Of a DNA stretch of 64,000 bases, positions 3,491 through 63,132 are shown piece by piece. The notes under the pieces are model-generated. The model had not been told where the DNA came from. It ran no database searches and was given only the letters and a program-made list of their open reading frames with translations. How positions within the stretch are numbered: position 1 is the stretch's first letter; each line of letters begins with the position of its first letter. Made by a program: the position numbers and the translations under genes. Origin of the DNA: Kondoa subrosea (taxonomy: Eukaryota); assembly GCA_039545335.1 (NCBI GenBank), contig BCIN01000002.1, positions 1,908,484-1,972,483 on the forward strand, given 5' to 3'.

Positions 3491-6400
3491 TTAAGCAGTG
3501 TTACCAGCGCTGTATCTGTCGATGTTCGGAGGATCACCTGCAGGCGGTGCATATTGCATGGACTGCCGAGCTGGTGTTGGCTGAGTTATCCCAGCACTAT
3601 GATCCCAAGCATTAGATGGTGGAGCAGGAGGAGGAGGAGGGAAAGCAGGTGCTCCAGGAGTGAAGCTATTGCGATTGTTATGCATAAGAGATGTTTGAGA
3701 ATTGTTGTAGCTTCCAGGTGTCGACTGCTGTTGAAAAGAAGGGGCAGGAGCAGCATAGTTTTGTTGAGAATAAGGTTGGGGTGCATAAGTTGGCGATACA
3801 TGAGGACTGTTATGTGCTTGTGCCATAGCTGGTACGACCGGAGCTACGTTGTTCCGTTTTGAACGATGGGCATTGTACGCTGCCGAAGGTGCAGTTTTTC
3901 GGGTTTTGCTTCTTCTACAGCATGCTCGAACACAGCTGTAGATTATTGCCAATACTATAAGACCTGCCACAACAATGACCGGGATAGCTGGAAATCCTAG
4001 TCAGATAGGAATGATGGCGCTGCAGGATGCTCACAAATCTGTTTATTATTGGTGATCCAGCTTGCAGCAGCTTCTTGCCATGGACCATTTTGACATTCGC
4101 CGCCAGTACACTGTCAAAGAAAGGTAAAATTCAGTTTCTTCAGCTCATTCAAGCTTCCATAGGATCCCTCACCCTTCCCGCAAGCCCGCATGATGTGCCA
4201 TCAGCGAAATTAGAGTCAAGTATTATGCATTGGCTACTTGATTGCCCAGGCGCTTGACAAGTCTATATTTCAAAAGTAGAGGTTAAGCGGCTTTACGGAA
4301 CGACCAAAGCAGTTAACTGACCACTTGACAATTTGAGCTAGCTCCTCCACAAGCTCTGGTAACTCCCAGAGATGAACCCTGCGTTTTACATTGCAGGTCT
4401 CGACTGGTGCAGATTCCATTGGCGCACTTGAGCCCTTGACCTGCCTCGCCACAGCTCGTTCCTGTTCCAAGATGTCAGGGACATTGATCCGATACAAGAT
4501 TGAGAGTATCGGACCATCTTTGGTAGTCTGATCTTCAGGACAGCTTGCAGAAGAGCCAGTACAATTCTCGGCTTGATCGCACTGCGCATTCACAGATGGA
4601 CGGCAGACTTTCGACGAGGATGAGAATTGACAGGATTCTTCACAACAGCTAGAATTGAGAGGATCGCAGACAGAACCCTGAGTGAACTTGCACTCAGAAG
4701 TGCAGCAGCTACTACCTCCTTGATTTCCGCTGCATGAACGCCAAAAAGCGTCAGCGAATCTCACATAGAGTCAGATCGAGTACTGACGGATCACATTGTT
4801 CCCCTATGGCAAGAAATGAGCTTGGATAACAAGGAATAGACAGAAAGCTGACCAGGCTCAAGAATACCATTTCCACATTGAGAAGTACTCAGAGTGGAAC
4901 GTGTACCAGGTTCGTAGAGACATGTCGTGTTCAAGGTGGATTGCAGAACAGAACAAACGTTGCCGATAGTACACGGACTGAAATCGCTGACGTTCTGAGT
5001 ACTGACGGGCGACATGATGTAAGCGCTGCCCGAATTGCAATTATTGCTTGTCAAAGGACAACAAGCTGAACCGGATTGAGAGGTTCCTGAGCAACCAGAA
5101 ACGCAGCTGGTTCGACAGTTAGATGACGCGGGTTGATGATTGTATTGACCAAACTTACTCATGCACAGCTATGATATGCATAGTCAGACGTGATTCACTT
5201 GACAGAGCAGTAGAAATACTGACCACCGAAATTATGCCCAATTTCATGAGCGATTGTGGTCCAAGTTCTATTTATGAGATGCTCAATTCAGCCTCTGCAA
5301 GACGCTGGCTTTGAATATTACCCACCGATCCGTCAAAGCTGTTACCGCAGTGCCGGAAGTACTTTGGCTATTTGAGCAAGACATGAACTAGAGAAAGCAA
5401 TGGCAAGACAACGATTGAAAACATACCCTTGACTGCTTGATGTTTCGACCCTACACAATTGACCTAACCAAGCTACACCGACTTCTTGTCCGGTATTGCA
5501 TGCCGTAAGGAGATGCCAACTAAATAAACAGCAAAGATAAGCGGTTCGGTTCAACGCAAAGGAGATTGACTTACAGTCCCGCACCGTCTGCACCTCCTTT
5601 ACTACCTCTCCATTGACTGAAGAGACTTAATCTCGCATTGAGATCAACCCCACCTCCACTTGAGCCTGAACATGCAACATTCCACGCATTATTTTGATCC
5701 GCTGTAGTTGGGCAAGAAGCATCCATGACGTTCATCTCTCTGAATTCATAGGGTCAGTCTGGTACTCGTCAACAAGGCGGAGAAACTTACACTACACCAA
5801 TTGAAACATTAAAGGTTCTTTGGTAAAGCCCGCTGACTGTATTGATCTCTGCTAGGATTTGTCCTATTATTCTTCATATCAGCTCGCGATCTGTGAAGAG
5901 AGAAAAATAGCAACTGACTTCTAGCAGCATCTTGTGATCCATAAGCTTGAACAGCCGTACAATCTGCTGCGACGCCAATGAAGAGGACTCGTTGATCTTT
6001 GGGGCACCCATTTGTTGATCCTATTGTGTTTACAAAAGAACTGCTGCTGTTCTGTCCGCCAGCTATATCTTGTCGTTTTGCAAATTGACGCGGATGACTT
6101 GCCGGAACGGGAAGAGGCAAAGAAGGATGGCTGAGAAGACCGCTGAGCCATGAAGATTCAGCCGGTCTCGAGAAGCCAAAGATAGAGTCGTCGAATGCTA
6201 GTTGTTGAGGAGTATTATAGACTGGATTTGATAGATCATTGTTGAAGTCGAGCGAGTCGTGAGAACACGAATGATGTTGTAGCTCGTCGTCTTCGTATGT
6301 ATCCATTTCGCGAGCTATGATAGTTGCACCACCAACTCGACCTCTTCTGGCCAAGGCAGATTTAGGTGGTTCAGGATCATATTCCGAGCGATCTCGTAGA

Positions 6401-14112: not shown

Positions 14113-15305
14113 ATGAATCAATTGGCTCGACTTGAAAGACCTAGACAGCTGCTAGCTTCTCTGCTCCTAAAATCACAATCTTTGTATTCTCCCAGACTTC
14201 GCATAGCTTTTTATGTCCTGTTGCTTCTCAATTGGCGAAACCTGCCTTTACTTTGGCATTTCAAGATCTTCACACCAGTAGTCAAGATCCTCTTCAAGTT
14301 CCACACTGGTCTGTTTACACCAAGTCCGCACTCGAGAGCCGTCGAGCTTGGTTTTCCTCGGAGAGACGCTGTGAATGAAGCTATTGGAATCAATCCTTTC
14401 GCGCCAGCTGCAACTGTGGTTACCAGATATAGGTAAATGTGGATTGCGATCGTTTAAATACTTGCTAATCAAATGTCCACAGTGTTGGCTTTTCAGATTC
14501 GGATTTCTACTTGCATCATTCCAATTCAGTTTATGCCAAGTTAGTCGTCCTCTAGTACTATGGCTTACAAGACTAAAGTCTGCTCAGAAACCTAGATCAT
14601 GCTCGCATGGAGATCTCGATGCGTATGGTTGCGCCTTTATTCGCCTTGAAGGGCTTCGCCGCCCATGTTGGCGGTTTGTCTTTTATATGGATCAAGGAGG
14701 TAAAGAGATTGTCAGATCAAACTTATTGCGTGACCTTTTGTTGACTTTTAACGCAGATTCCAATGTTTACAACATATCAAGTAGACACATGTCTAGTAGC
14801 ATGGAATGATCGGTGGTGCTTCGAACGTAAGCAAATCCCTGACGTACTGGCTGTTCGGTACTCATGAGTGCACCCAGTGCATAAATTCACACTTCCGCTT
14901 TCAGCAAAGAAGGAACGCGATACAGTCATTAGAACGGCAAGAGGCGACCGAACGCTATGTACTCTAGCTTTAACAAAGTTCACTTGTCGGTTACAAGGCA
15001 AGCCAATCGATTTAGGAAAAGGAATCGCCTTTAGTGGTTTTGGAAAGTAAGAAGCTCCTCCTCGCTTTGTGTTGTAGCTGATGATGATGCTTAGAGACGG
15101 CGCAAATTGGGCTCGGACAAAGGCATTGAGGAAACAAGGGCCGAAAGCTATCAAAGACTTCCTCACATCTGGACCGGAAGATTCTGGCATAGAGATGTAT
15201 GAGGAACAGAATCGAAAGGCATTGGCTATTATTGATCGACTGGGTGGACATGAGAAGAAGAGTGTTTGGTTGGAATTGGCCAACATTCATGCTGGTCAAG
15301 AATGA
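14113..15305 (+). CDS. Hotdog-fold thioesterase-like protein (THEM6/YBR096W family)
   Basis: Manual splicing gives LLLNWRNLPLLWHFKIF...DSDFYLHHSNSVYAK|NLDHARM...GGLSFIWIKE|IPMFTTYQVDTCLVAWNDRW, which matches the family motifs. Confidence 0.8.
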
Positions 15306-33683: not shown

Positions 33684-34729
33684 ATGGCGTCAACAATCAT
33701 TGTTAAATATCTGAATCAACTTTTCTTGAAATGTCAACGGCCTTCGAGGACCGAGCTCATTGCTTTCTCGCACAGGGATCTCAATCGATTAGTACTAGAT
33801 TATTTGGTTGTAGAAGGCTATAAGAATGCAGCGGAAAATTTCACTCGCGAGTCTGGCATGGAATCCGTCAATGTCGAAGCGATAGATCAACGAACAGCTA
33901 TCCGCAACGCCATACATCGAGGAGATATCGAATCTGCGATAGAACAACTGAACGATCTGAACAGCGAGGTAGCTTTCCACCTCTTCTTTCTCTGTGTTTC
34001 CTCTACTATGATTCAACTTTTACATGCACCACTCTCAGAAAGCTTCCCTGTATCATCTCTTCTGATGTTGGGGTTCAAGCTTTCCTTGATGATTTGTGAC
34101 ACAACCAAAACCGTCCGAATGAGTTCCCCTTTTTCTTAGTATCAAAGTCTTGTCGCGGGAAGAACCTTAGCTGATCATTGGCCTGCGCACAGATTCTTGA
34201 CACAAATCCTGCACTTTATTTCCACCTTCAGCAGCAACGGCTGATCGAGCTGATCCGTCAAGGCAAAATTTCGGACGCTCTAATTTTCGCTCAAACGGAA
34301 TTAGCACCGAGGGGAGAAGAGAATCCAGCTTTCCTTGGAGAACTGGAACGAACTATGGCACTCCTGGCATTCGAACTACCGAAGCTAAATGTCGTTTCTT
34401 CTGCCAAATCAGCTCCAGCACCGACAAGTAAGGGCAAGAGCAAAGAGACAGACGCATCAGCTTCTGTTCTGCCTGCCTCTCTCAACGCACTCTTGCAACC
34501 AGCACAGCGACAGCGAACAGCAACAGAAGTCAACGCTGCTATTCTCAAGAGCCAAAATCATGGATCGGAACCTAAATTACCTAATCTGTTGAAGATGTTG
34601 GCATATGGCGAAGATCTTCTTCAGACAAAGGTAGTCAGCTTTCCCCGTTTGGACATGAATGACCTCCTGTCCAAGAGCAAGCCGAAAGTGGATGAGAAGG
34701 AAGACGCGGTGCAGGATATGGAGTTGTAG
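33684..34729 (+). CDS. GID8: GID/CTLH complex subunit Gid8 (LisH-CTLH-CRA)
   Basis: DLNRLVLDYLVVEGYKNAAENF, AIEQLNDLN, ILDTNPALYFHLQQQRLIELIR, ELAPRGEENP, LERTMALLAF. Start codon uncertain. Confidence 0.9.
34005..34125 (+). ncRNA. Intronic box C/D snoRNA, snR40-like (predicted guide for the 18S Gm1271-equivalent)
   Basis: Inside the 224-nt GID8 intron (33969-34192): C-like ATGATT 34008, guide CATGCACCAC 34023-34032 antisense to 18S GUGGUGCAUG, D'-like CTCA, stem GAAAGCTT/AAGCTTTC, C' TGATGA 34087, degenerate D box near 34115-34122. Confidence 0.7.
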
Positions 34730-34924: not shown

Positions 34925-37900
34925 ATGACCTCTCTGCCTTCCGAACTCTCAACATATGTTGACGATCCTGGTGCACGCGTCCTCACGATTCAGGCTGCAC
35001 ACATGCTAGCGGCACATGAATCGGCGCTCGTTCCCACCCTGATTCCTCAACGCTGGGCAGCTCTGGTAAGCAATAGCTCGATTGTCCTGAGGTTGTCACT
35101 GCGAGCATCTTCTTTCATCGGTCGGTCTTCATCTTCTGTTGCTGAATAAGTCACTGATATGTCCCGTAGTGGATAATCTGATCGAAGCGGCACGAATCTC
35201 TACACATACTGGAATCGGTCTGACCAGACGGGCCTTGATCGCAGCTCTCGCTTCAGCACAATTACATCATGAAACGTCGAATGCTCTCAGTAAAGTACCA
35301 CATCAAGACAGAGACTACATTAGCGCAATAGAAGACTGGACGACGTCCTTCTCGGTAAACATAAACTCTGCCCTCTCGCTCGTCGAGCTCTTTGTGGCTT
35401 CCGGCTTTTCCCTCACATCTTGCTTCATTGGGAATGCATTCATGGCTGCTGAAGAATCAGTTAGGATGATTGATAATGTCTTTGGATCAAACGATACTTC
35501 TCGAGCCATATCGTCGATTGTATGTTTTTATAAGGCATGAAAGGCAAAGAGGAACATCTGAAGCTCTATCTGAACAGATTTTGATGACGCAGCGCGAGTT
35601 TCGACACTCAGAAGATCACCCAATAGCTCAAGCTGGCACATTGGTCTCGATCACGGCTCTGACGAAAGCCATTACAGCTTTTGCTTGCCTTCAAGCTGTC
35701 ACACATAATCGCAGCATGTCCAAAGTGAAGCATAGTGTTCTTTGTGATGCGATTGTAGGATCTGCCAGATCGGAGAATGATACCAAGCAAGAAGTCTCAG
35801 ATCGGCCAAAGCAATTCACGGTCGAATCACGTCGACTCCTGCCACAAGACGTCAAGTCAAGACCGAGCTCGTCAACAGGATCAAAGTTTCGTAGGCGCAA
35901 ATCGTTCATGGACTTGAAAGAAACAGAAGAAATCTCGGAAGAACGTAGCGCAATTATAGAAGCTACGCCTTGGCCATCGAAATCCCATCCATTCATCCGA
36001 CAACAGAACGCAAATTGGAATGACCTTGCCAATGAATTGGCTGCCGCGGAAGATCTCTCTTCTCAGATACAGCGTCACAATGAATCGCTTAATCGCATGC
36101 CGGAAGACCAGCGATACCATCTGACTCTGAAGTCTGTAACTACTCGCATTACGAAGAATCGCAAGCGAGCACACGAAGAGCAGTACCTTGGCGAATCAGA
36201 TACTGATTCGCTACGATCTGTGGAAGTAGAGAATCCCGGTGAACCACCTCCAAAGTCAAGTGGTCTTTTCAATCGTATCCGAGGAGCATTTGCAAGAAGC
36301 CCAAGGAAGAGAAGCAAAAGCGGAGAGACCGTTAATCAGGACATTGCGAATTCAGAACAGCAGACACCAGCTTCCTTTGTTACGTATGAAGAAGATCGTT
36401 CAATAGGGACTGATCAATCCAGCTCGAATAATTCACCAGATATTCCAAACGAAGAATACGAGCATGCCACTTTTCCACAAGGCCATTATGCATTCAATCT
36501 GCGCAAATACATGAAATATTCGTCGTCTGCCTATGGTCATCTGTTCATGAACCTGATGGGTATCAATCGCGAATACAAGAAAGAAGCAATGTCGCCACAT
36601 CACGCAAATATAGTGAGCTGCTTGCCGCGCAGTAGTATCGCTCCCGCTGATGCTTGTTGCAGCACGCATTTTGCCTACATAACGGAATTGAGCTGCAAGA
36701 TGTCCTTCTATCTTCTTTCATGGATGACTCTTTTGGCGGTTTTGGCGATAACGATAGACACCGGATTATTTCCTACGTCAGTTTGGATCACGAAGCCAAG
36801 GCAGTTGTATTGACTTGCAGGCAAGTCTTTACTGTTCAGCAGCTCTCACATGCTCGAGCTGACTGAATAATCCAGAGGTAGCTGGGGTTTCAGCGATATC
36901 GTATATTAAGGCTTCCTGACGAGAAGATCTGAAATGCTGATGATTACACTTAGTTAACCGACTTATGCGCCGACTTCCAACTGGTTTCGCTACCCGGGTC
37001 ACCTGAAGGGTATTTCTTTGCCCACAGTGGGATATTGCGCGCCGCTCAGCATCTGTCGTCGATTCGCAACTCTGTGCATCAAGTCATCACGAAAGCTTTA
37101 TCTCGATATCCAGATTATGGACTGTGAGCTGTTCTGCTTGCCGTGTGTCTCTGAGGCTGATTGCTGCCTCTAAGGATTCTGACCGGTCATTCTCTGGGCG
37201 GAGCTGTTTGCACTTTGCTCGGCCTGCTTTTGGCAACACCTGCAACGACTTATTATGCAGATGAGATCAACAAACCTCGCCGTTCCGCATTTTTCACCGG
37301 AACAAGTTCAGGCCTACCTGCTGGTCGACCAATTCATGTATTTGCTTATGGTCCTGCTGCATGCGTCTCTTCCGATTTAGCGGCTTATTCTTCTGGATTG
37401 GTCACTTCCGTCACGCACAATAACGACATTGTGTCGTTTCTTTCACTTGGAACGCTAAGAGATCTCAAAAGTATGGCTGTCACCCTCTACGATGAAAAGA
37501 GTGAGCTATACTTCTATTGCTGCGGCAGTCACTTACATACAGCATAGATCTGGCCGAGCACATTATAGCAAGAGTAATCGGTTTCCAACGCAATCGTTCG
37601 CAAGTCAACACTCCGTCGAGTGCAGACGAGGGCAATTACAACACTAGTTCCGAAGGGCAACTCACTACTAGCAAAAGAATGCCAATGAGTGCTGCTACGA
37701 ATCATCAAGATGAGGTGGATCTAGACAATTATTATTGGTCGCTGTAAGTGTCCTTTGGTCTCATCAGCATGCCTTACTTATCTGTACTGCAGCATTTCTA
37801 CTATGAGGGCTTCCAGCTCGCACGAGAAACTTTATCCTGCTGGCAAGGTTCTGAACATTGCACTGCAAGAAGCGTCCAGGACAATTGAGGTCGATGGTCG

Positions 37901-57714: not shown

Positions 57715-59426
<1,712 letters not shown>

Positions 59427-59584: not shown

Positions 59585-62500
59585 ATGTCTGATAGCACAG
59601 TTCCTGTCACTGATCAGAGCGTCAATCACACGAATGGGCTCGAAACAGATTTTGCCGTTGAGACTCCCTCGAATGGAAACGAGACTATAGCTCAATCTGT
59701 CCCTGTGTCTACACCAAATCCTCAGCAACAAACCCTTTCCACCAAGCCTAACTCCTCAACCGCGCAGCACACTTTCTTTGATTCTTCTGTTGTTTCCGAG
59801 CAGACCGAGCCAGATGCTGCGATTTCTGCAACACCCACGGTCACCAACGCAGTCCCTTCTCAGCAACAGCAGACAGAAAGAGCCATTTCACCAGTATCGC
59901 AACGAATAGCCTCAATAACGGGCGTTACTGCTCAATCGAGACCTGTTAGCAACCCAGCTCTCTTACCTAGTTCTCGTCCGGCTTCAAAAGTTCCACTCAA
60001 TGCTGCTGAGAAAGCTGCTCAAGTTGCAGAAGCTCTATCGAAACTCGCTCATGTTGGACCTCCCAAACTTGACGTGCTCAAGGCTAGAATAGCTGAGAAT
60101 CCAACGGACGGAGAGGCTTGGCAAGGCTATGTTCAGCTGACGGAAGAAAGGGGAGATCTAGAAAGGACACGTCAAGTATACGAGGAACTGCTCAAAGTCT
60201 TCCCTGATTCGGTTAGTGAAGGTGGAACTTCGCTGTCAATCAGCTCAAGTCAAATACTGTCCTAACAGGCCCAACATTGGATCTCTTATGCCGATATGGA
60301 ACTCAAACACTCTCATTTCCCTCAAGTTGAAGCTATCTTTGCACGCTGTCTTCGTACATCTACCGCGGTCAATCTTTGGGCTTTCTACCTCACTTACATC
60401 CGGCGAGTCAACAAGATAGAACTCGGAGATCCAGAGAAGACCAAGCATTCTAGGACTGTGATTGTAAAAGCATACGAATTCAGTTTGGCACATATTGGGT
60501 CAGACAAGAACGCTGGCGGCTTATGGCATGATTATATTGGATTTTTGAGGAGTGCAGATGTGAGTGAATCATACATAAGTATAGTCTTAGGCTCAAAACT
60601 CTGCTAGGCGTCCGGACAATGGGAAATGCAACAGAACATGGACAGCGTTCGGAAGGCCTATCAGCAAGCCGTCACTATGCCTTTGAGCAACGTGGAACAG
60701 ATCTGGTCAGAATACAATCATTGGGAGCAGAACTTGAATAAACTCACCGTAAGTCAATCTTTCCAAATTTGCTCTGATCTAGCCTGGTCAGAATGGATCG
60801 GACGCGCTTGGTATTGTGCTCTTACACACGATGCAAGGCATGATGCATTACTCGCACAGCGAAATCGAACAACGCTACGCCCCTTTCCCTTTTTTGACTT
60901 TGACATGTTGCGCTTCACGAGACTATGTTCTGAAATGACTTTGCGCTTTTTTCCTTCCCTCTTCACCCTACTCCTACACCTATGATACAACCACAAACAG
61001 GCCAAGAAATTCATCGGTGAAAGAAGTGCAGCCTATATGACCGCTCGCAGCGCTTTAAGAGAGATGCGTCCTTTGGTCGAACCGATCGAGATCCCCATCA
61101 TCTTAGCTTCACTACCGCACCGACCGGATTGGAGCAATTCTGCAGATCGACTGTACATACAGCAGTGGCGGCAATACTTGAAGTGGGAAGAAGGCAACCC
61201 TTTACAGCTCGAGGATAAGAACGCACTCAACATGCGTATCCTGTTCGCTCATCGGAAATCTTTGGTCCATCTGAGGTTCTATCCCGAAGCATGGTAAGGC
61301 TGCGATTTCGGGCATTAGATCGGAATCTGACGTGCAATACAGGGCTCTAGCTTCGAATTTTGCAAAGTCGATAGGCAAGAACGAAGAGGCAGCAAATATG
61401 CTCAAAAATGGCTTTACAGCCAATGATACGAGGTTTGAAATTGCTCTCATTACTGCTGATACTCTCTGACTACTTCGGCAGTCTGCTCCTTGGTTTTGCT
61501 TATGCTGAAGCAGAAGAAGCCAAGCGGAATTTTGAAGAAAGTCATAAAGCCTACGATTCCCTCTTATCTCGCTTCCATGCCAGTTTGGCCGATTTGATCA
61601 GTAGAAGAGACAAAAGTATAGAGAAAGCTACAACAGAAGCGCAACAAGCTACAAAATCTGAAACAGCTGAGGCTGACGGCGAGAAGACTGTAGGTGAAGA
61701 AATCGTTCAGATTAGGGAAGCAATTACTTCAGAAGCTCAGCCTGCCATTGATTCGCTCAAAAAAGCTGCTGCAAGTGTTTGGATTGCGCAAATGCGGTTT
61801 GCCAGGAGAGCTGAAGTGAGTCAATTCCGAAGTAGTGCTACGTGGTTCTCAATCTCTTCAAACAGGGCATCAAACAAGCTAGAGCCATATTCGGTAAAGC
61901 AAGAAAGTCGGAACACCTAGTGTGGCAGGTTGTCGAAGCAGATGGTCAGTTCGAGTGAATTGACCAGCATTCGAATACCTAATCATGCTGTTGACAGCGA
62001 TGATGGAGTATCACTGGAACAAAGAACCTAAAGTAGCTACCAACGTCTTTGAGCTGGGATTGAAGACCTTCAGCGAAGAACCAGCTTACGTTGTCCGGTA
62101 TTTGGATTTCCTGATCAATACGAATGACGACACAAGTAAGTAACTTCCCGTCCATTCCTATTTATTACCATGCTAATCTACGAAATGTAGACGCTCGAGC
62201 AGTGTTTGAAAGAACCATTGGAAAAATCCCGCCTGAACATGCTAAACCGCTTTGGGATCGCTGGGCACGATTTGAGAATCAGTTTGGTGATCTAACAGCT
62301 ATGCAAAAGCTCGACAGTCGGATAGCGGAGGCATATCCAAACAGTGCGTACCCATTTCCTTTTTTAGTATTTCATCGTGTCTGAATTTGAAACCTAGGCG
62401 AACCTGTATTACGATTCGTTGAACGACATGTTCATCAAGGTCTTACAGAAATGCTCACTAAAGATCTTGGCTTCCTACCACCTGGAGCAGCAGCGAAAGC

Positions 62501-63132
62501 TCAACAACAACCAAGGGATGATGCCAGTTCTTCTCGATCACCTTCACCTGTTCGAGGAGGCGCGGGAATGAAACGAGGTCCTTCTGAAGAACGTATGGCT
62601 TATGGTAGAAGAAGAGTCAGCGTTTCTCCGCCTGGATTTAGAAGACCAGATATGATTGGTGGAGCGAAAAGACTGAGACGGGATTCACCAAGTCCTGTTA
62701 GAAGAGGCGGACAAATACCGCCGATGGGCAGAAGACCAAATAGTCCACCTCCAGGCAGAGGACAAGGAGGAAGAGGAGCAGGAAGAGGCTTTTCACCACC
62801 TCCGCCGCTCGCTGGACCTCCTGGAAGAAGATTTGAAGATGAAGATGGTATTACAGAATTGTTGAGGTATTTCGTTAGTATTTTGCCGTCCGCAAGTGCT
62901 TTCAATGGTCAGTCTACCTTTTCGATTGAGAGAAGAAACAATACTGATAACGCACCAGGACCCATTATCCCTGGTGGAACAATTTGCGAATTACTCAAGA
63001 CTGTCACTGTACCAGCTTCTCAAGTTAGAGGCCGACCTGTAGGAAGGATGGATTCGCCTGTAAGTGTCATTGAGTTATTTCGGAGGCCATTCTCATCGGA
63101 ACTGCTTCTGCTAGTACGGTTACGGACGGTAA
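59585..63132 (+). CDS. RNA14: mRNA 3'-end processing factor Rna14 / CstF-77 (HAT repeats)
   Basis: LWAFYLTYIRR, PLSNVEQIWSEY, NKLT|AKKF, YLKWEEGNPL, LRFYPEAW, WIAQMRFARRAEG, MEYHWNK, VFELGLK; RS/RG-rich C-terminus. Confidence 0.95.

Follow-up and report, generated by a model that had tools for sequence, protein, structure and literature searches.

The RNA14 locus and its third intron

The window analyzed here, a 64,000-nt stretch of the Kondoa subrosea genome (contig BCIN01000002.1), encodes an orthologue of RNA14/CstF-77/su(f) at 59585..63132 on the forward strand, where the exons and intron elements of this gene described below also lie. The gene was modelled by hand with 12 coding exons and 11 introns; introns 1-8 were recovered independently by a spliced aligner, exons 2-4, including both exons flanking intron 3, matched Pfam Suf in order, and the closest named homologues of the protein were basidiomycete rna14 proteins. 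In a quick tree, the window sequence grouped with named Microbotryomycetes and with locus L007 (clade support 99%), where exon 3 ends in a match to a named rust protein, which places the window in Pucciniomycotina. Upstream lies a RuvB-like helicase gene (57880-59426), which we take to be RVB1. It ends ~160 nt before the RNA14 start codon, so the terminator of one gene and the promoter of the other overlap closely.

Intron 3 (60749..61000; 252 nt, phase 0, GT..AG) separates exon 3 (60608..60748, ending NKLT) from exon 4 (61001..61293, beginning AKKF), both supported by the gene model and Pfam Suf. The initial annotation had singled it out as unusually long, and rightly so: the remaining 10 introns of the gene measure 48-57 nt each. 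A gene finder trained on 464 kb of the source genome itself predicted 1185 introns with a median of 52 nt, at most 30 of them reaching 200 nt, an upper bound that includes merged genes. Other long introns predicted in the window lie at 3915-4321, 14674-14904, 33969-34231, and 36777-37049, some of which may be gene-finder errors. No long intron was found in the predicted RNA15 and PCF11-like genes of the source genome, whose first exons may be missed. Intron 3's 5' splice site, GTAAGT (60749..60754), is strong, ranking at the 73rd percentile of real donors.

The initial annotation had read the intron as a structured switch, in which an internal acceptor and a 19-nt poison exon were governed by hairpins. 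The motifs are all where it placed them, including the U-rich tracts. An internal branch-like CTCTGAT (A 60777), containing the annotated CTGAT, is followed by TAG 60780-82 and CAG 60789-91 (together 60772..60791), and the 19-nt segment (60792-60810) is followed by GTATTG at 60811 (exon and donor together 60792..60816). Its reading of the frames also held, inclusion of the 19-nt exon causing a frameshift and splicing to the 60791 acceptor leading to a stop at 60936-38. The internal branch site itself is good (58th percentile), with the CAG at the modal 14-nt distance, and a branch-plus-YAG of equal quality at +40 to +66 occurred in 5% of 885 control segments. The 43-nt intron it would define, described as normal, sits however at the size floor, only six of the 1185 predicted introns being 43 nt or shorter (0.5th percentile), and its 29-nt distance from 5' splice site to branch falls at the 1st percentile. 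GTATTG ranks at the 0.8th percentile of real donors, and equally good GTs occur about six times per 250 nt of intergenic DNA. Structure fared no better. Whole-intron folding gave a z of 0.09, with 106 of 200 shuffles folding as well, and the best 70-nt window (60769-60838, z -2.6), which spans most of two adjacent predicted hairpins (60771-60805 and 60806-60839; within 60771..60839), was reached by 8 of 40 intergenic control pieces. The internal branch site is predicted to be paired, but CTGATC finds its partner in 60794-60805 rather than in GGTCAG. In a separate comparison, folding z was +0.6 to +0.9 for the window, L015, and L018, and -2.5 for L003. Neither the internal branch and acceptor nor the hairpins are conserved: intron nucleotides 8-165 could not be aligned to back-translations of the related proteins P0032 or P0027, degenerate data of limited power, and no YAG was found past +23 inside the long orthologous introns of L003, L015, and L018. 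Minor use of the 60791 acceptor as noise is possible.

Intron length and sequence among relatives

Orthologous DNA was collected by a metagenome scan for the best 80 of 275 relatives, and splice alignment of 66 distinct loci yielded 383 introns; no orthologous RNA14 loci were found in prokaryote genomes or viral contigs. The position of intron 3 is widely conserved, and in 41 of 44 loci the intron is shorter than 200 nt. The three that exceed this length, L003 (227 nt), L015 (256 nt), and L018 (255 nt), belong to two clades that are distinct from the window branch in the tree, and their other introns measure 51-83 nt. At five downstream positions, none of 186 orthologous introns was longer than 104 nt.

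A second estimate of intron length was drawn from read-through proteins, given that gene callers often extend the exon 3 translation into the intron. We scored 130 proteins with an intron-like tail for an exon 4 start out of frame, removed 3 near-duplicates, re-labelled 4 by hand, and counted introns of at least 100 nt as long. This proxy gave 28 long, 42 short, and 57 uninformative cases, so that 42 of the 70 informative introns were short. Group labels are based on exon-3 signatures and a few named references, and P0027 and P0032 are related and not independent. In the window clade, seven of eight informative introns were long (257, 193, 374, 326, at least 174, 255, and 120 nt) and one was 70 nt. 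The Microbotryomycete-like group had seven long and one short, the L015/L018 group three long out of three, and two further groups three long each, while all six informative introns in the Rhodotorula-type group were short and all others comprised 5 long and 34 short. The preceding intron measured 54-66 nt in all seven proteins where its length was determined, four of which carry a long intron 3.

Length was also scored at neighboring positions. An Agaricomycete-like clade carries a 228-259-nt RNA14 intron one position upstream of intron 3 (L073:2923-3150, L077:3554-3799, L079:1509-1767, L080:3564-3799). These introns have a normal strong branch site and keep a GU-rich core even where four-fold sites are saturated, a pattern that makes an independent regulatory element possible. 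Long calls at position 71/72 were dropped, that in L010 being an alignment artefact and those in L065, L075, and L076 including coding sequence (the intron itself is ~158 nt by eye). In these three loci the first conserved RNA14 intron (L065:3307-3465, ~158 nt) contains a stretch, AUGUAC-UAUA, similar to the 3' flank of the window's RVB1-like gene.

Sequence is retained less than length. When intron 3 was set against its 257-nt counterpart in the nearest full-length relative, alignment was confined to 60918-60983 (whole-intron p=0.005, 200 shuffles), with the core of that stretch at 60918-60945 scoring 22.6 bits against a null of 12.0±1.8; intron nucleotides 8-165 and the control intron 2 gave no alignment to that relative. 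The core (60918..60945), unique in the genome, comprises CGAGAC, a candidate distant branch site TTCTGAA (A 60933), and ACTTTGC. CGAGAC also scored highest of all hexamers in the clade (8.2, the maxima in 8 shuffles being 4.5-6.3) and is compatible with seven of eight sequences. The window 5' splice site (60749-60756) is predicted to pair with the end of this block (60935-60944) at a probability of 0.8-0.99, a pairing partly kept in the relative, without compensatory change. Between L015 and L018, the 3' 150 columns of the intron are 92% identical compared with 72% at four-fold sites. No motif was found to be shared between groups, and when the window intron was aligned as DNA to L003, L015, L018, and the position-168 introns, only pyrimidine-tract similarity emerged. 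Coding use of intron 3 as an alternative C-terminus was rejected, as it has no Pfam match and a 1-nt frameshift within the intron separates P0032 from P0033. A weak peptide match to P0027 was set aside, not being positionally homologous.

Branch site, AG-free tail, and poly(A) signals

The 3' end of intron 3 is unusual. The branch-like CTATGAT at the normal place (60980..60986, at -16) ranks at the 4th percentile of best sites in the short introns of the source genome, bearing out its description as weak by the initial annotation. TTCTGAA ranks at the 48th percentile; located 68 nt before the 3' splice site, it heads a 77-nt AG-free tail (60922..60998) that includes a pyrimidine tract (60939-60981). 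The same layout recurs among relatives. Among versions of exactly known length, 10 long introns had lower branch scores at the normal position than 35 short ones (medians 0.62 vs 1.8, p=0.002), and the four introns available as DNA scored 0.06-0.63 where 335 short orthologous introns had a median of 2.09; P0032 has a possibly usable branch site at -19. In 11 of 14 introns, 58-85 nt separated the best distant candidate from the 3' end, a range picked post hoc. AG-free tails measured 77, 95, 231, and 230 nt in the window and three orthologues, compared with a median of 17 nt in the other predicted long introns of the source genome (n=31), two of which reach 75 nt. In L015 and L018 (L015:16-271, L018:402-656), ~230 nt run without an AG and good branch-like sites lie at +27 to +40, which suggests branching near the 5' end followed by a long scan to the 3' splice site. 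As in introns with distant branch points and AG exclusion zones (AGEZ), the AG-free zone exceeds 40 nt and a branch consensus lies near its 5' end, with none at the normal place; PMC1431707 reports them for human exons, whereas the branch point of intron 3 is a prediction. It may be that these fungi generally splice long introns by means of AG-free tails.

Candidate poly(A) signals lie upstream of this region. AUGHAH is reported in PMC3990503 at 76% of main poly(A) sites in Cryptococcus, ~20 nt upstream, AUGCAU being commonest. In the source genome, AUGHAH occurs at 4.4/kb behind predicted stops vs 2.5/kb before starts (1.8-fold). Intron 3 contains ATGCAA (60831-36) and ATGCAT (60843-48) in tandem (60831..60848), followed by a U-rich tract; two AUGHAH in 252 nt, where ~0.65 are expected, are a weak excess in themselves, and the first C/U-rich tract (60880..60902) is a candidate downstream element. 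No such tandem occurred in short introns totalling 61 kb, whereas 33 kb of 3' flanks contained 8, the pattern having been chosen post hoc. By analogy with Cryptococcus, cleavage is predicted near 60860-60870. If intron 3 is retained, the first in-frame stop is TGA 60983-85, inside CTATGAT. The open frame before it (p=0.03) has no counterpart in L015/L018; L015 has its first in-frame stop at codon 9.

The intronic polyadenylation proposed by the initial annotation is plausible by analogy with known systems, but the window's AUGHAH motifs do not persist in its nearest relatives, where their presence is improbable (expected counts 0.12, 0.12, 0, 0, and 0.12 in P0027, P0032, P0030, P0031, and P0038, three of them incomplete). 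AUGHAH was likewise absent from the L003 intron. In L015 and L018, the best-conserved block, which holds UGUA and AUGAAU, is also present in a third species (P0076).

Transcript-like evidence came from up to three cDNA-like contigs, those of retained-intron proteins recovered by a search favoring such proteins. P0067 has its upstream introns spliced and intron 3 retained, whereas the near-identical P0073, which shares its exon 3 and the beginning of the intron, keeps the upstream introns unspliced; P0098 and P0085 resemble P0067 with weaker genomic partners. This suggests that intron 3 is removed late. The contigs of P0067, P0098, and P0085 are 670-1040 nt longer than the proteins need, lengths that suggest retention with read-through fits at least as well as an intronic cut. 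A literature search covering few subscription papers turned up no paper on basidiomycete RNA14 being controlled through an intron, and RNA14 was not found in the supplementary files of PMC3990503 (5) or PMC5006051 (11).

Explanations for the long intron

We regard intron 3 as probably functional, with good confidence. The proposal that it regulates RNA14 draws support from its conserved length and 3'-splice-site architecture, although not in the poison-exon and hairpin version. That it is a conserved RNA14 attenuator of the CSTF3 type is our favored reading, an argument from analogy to which we give not quite an even chance. Intron 3 is long in genomes with ~50-nt introns, has no good branch site where one would normally lie, and carries a candidate distant site with an AG-free tail. 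Such an architecture would be expected to slow splicing, and the delay could allow the cleavage and polyadenylation machinery to cut the transcript inside the intron. By analogy, Rna14 would be a limiting scaffold of that machinery, so that a rise in Rna14 would shift output from full-length mRNA toward truncated RNA. Cleavage near 60865 would leave an RNA without an in-frame stop, like the short RNA of fly su(f), and the brake would act at the 3' splice site rather than through a weak 5' splice site as in vertebrate CSTF3.

Feedback by premature polyadenylation is described for both vertebrate CSTF3 and fly su(f), with a convergent origin, in PMC3708835. Intron 3 of vertebrate CSTF3 shares with the intron studied here the gene family, a conserved large size, and a proposed competition between slow splicing and intronic cleavage, the likeness being drawn on these features and not on intron position. 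It differs in that slow splicing there involves a weak 5' splice site and U1, whereas here the 5' site is strong and the weakness lies at the branch and 3' end, and in that its poly(A) site has been mapped and tested, whereas the present one is a candidate predicted from sequence. Drosophila su(f) is similar in that an intronic cut yields an RNA without an in-frame stop, and here both the retained and the 60791-spliced frames are open past the candidate site; the fly case, according to the same source, is genetically demonstrated, whereas the open frame is lost in L015 and L018. In Saccharomyces cerevisiae, RNA14 is itself prematurely cut, in >70% of transcripts in the data set of PMC3787265, with a sensitivity to processing-factor levels, but there the sites lie in coding sequence, without an intron. 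A fungal feedback circuit is therefore already known; only an intronic one, braked at the branch point, would be new.

The same branch-site and AG-free architecture would also suit a retention rheostat without intronic polyadenylation, in which retained transcripts are held or degraded and RNA14 is tuned to splicing activity or environment, possibly via a protein binding CGAGAC. The retained-intron, cDNA-like contigs seem to extend past intron 3, the top hexamer of the clade is CGAGAC, and retention-dependent, NMD-independent regulation that lowers expression is described in PMC5006051 for Cryptococcus neoformans, also a basidiomycete, as a general phenomenon in contrast to the single gene considered here. 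This explanation leaves the choice of RNA14 unexplained, the best-conserved block of L015 and L018 resembles a poly(A) signal, and long weak introns are generally over-represented as retained in total-RNA assemblies; we consider it unlikely. A further reading is an ancestral expansion kept by descent with no regulatory function, the distant branch site and AG-free tail serving only the splicing needs of a long intron. The existence of up to 30 introns of at least 200 nt among the 1185 predicted, the failure of most of intron 3 to align even to the nearest relative, the repeated reversion to short introns, and the lack of a cross-group motif agree with this. Length nevertheless persists despite sequence turnover in groups far apart in the tree while neighboring introns are short, purifying selection is local in L015/L018 and at 60918-60945, and the Agaricomycete-like clade has an independent long intron with a conserved core one position upstream, which together make a functionless intron distinctly unlikely.

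An undescribed snoRNA-like small RNA hosted in intron 3 would explain the conserved extra length, and we consider it very unlikely. A C-box-like ATGATGC (60840) and CTGA (60930) lie ~94 nt apart, a short conserved motif sits immediately upstream of CTGA, and the long intron at a neighboring position in the other clade could represent a hosted RNA that moved. Yet the Rfam scan recommended by the initial annotation revealed no known snoRNA, with no hit at gathering score in the window and none at E ≤10 and 5 for the intron and for five orthologous loci. Against SSU, 5.8S, and the first 2.2 kb of LSU taken from other eukaryotes, no complementarity exceeded that of shuffles and none adjoined CTGA, and complementarity to the organism's own U2 and U6 reached at most 8 nt, short of a 10-nt guide. 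The 5-6 nt between CGAGAC and the CTGA-like site vary in sequence and length among relatives, unlike a C/D guide, and intron lengths range from 161 to 374 nt. An H/ACA reading was rejected, the ANANNA-like AGACTA not being kept in the relative. The rDNA of the organism itself was not found in the source assembly, and viral contigs and plasmids yielded no eukaryotic rDNA. Prokaryote assemblies include at least 49 contigs (L102-L150) with eukaryotic rDNA, apparently by contamination, and the source genome has two U2 snRNA copies with equal scores, inverted and 3.6 kb apart (C8:321925-322112 and C8:325680-325867). Least probable of all is the switch first proposed, in which hairpins would gate the 60791 acceptor with or without the 19-nt poison exon and send the mRNA to NMD: the good, predictedly paired internal branch site with its well-spaced CAG, set against a weak proximal one, and the premature stops in both products speak for it, but the poor donor, the minimal intron size, hairpins within chance, a region unalignable to the nearest relative, and the exclusion of internal YAG from L003, L015, and L018 leave it very unlikely.

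Returning to the attenuator, its widest form would be a basidiomycete intronic CstF-77/Rna14 loop, independent of those in fly, vertebrates, and budding yeast and working via a displaced branch point and AG-free tail, that is old, was repeatedly lost, and reappeared one intron upstream in the Agaricomycete-like clade; this broader history is doubtful and offered tentatively. If true, poly(A) feedback on this gene would have arisen independently once more, and a genome with tight definition of ~50-nt introns would have opened a kinetic window in which intronic cleavage can occur by shifting the branch point instead of weakening the 5' site. If false, intron 3 would still be a clear example in which intron length and branch-site layout are conserved but sequence is not. 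It provides a 250-nt testable unit for the competition between splicing and 3'-end formation in fungi.
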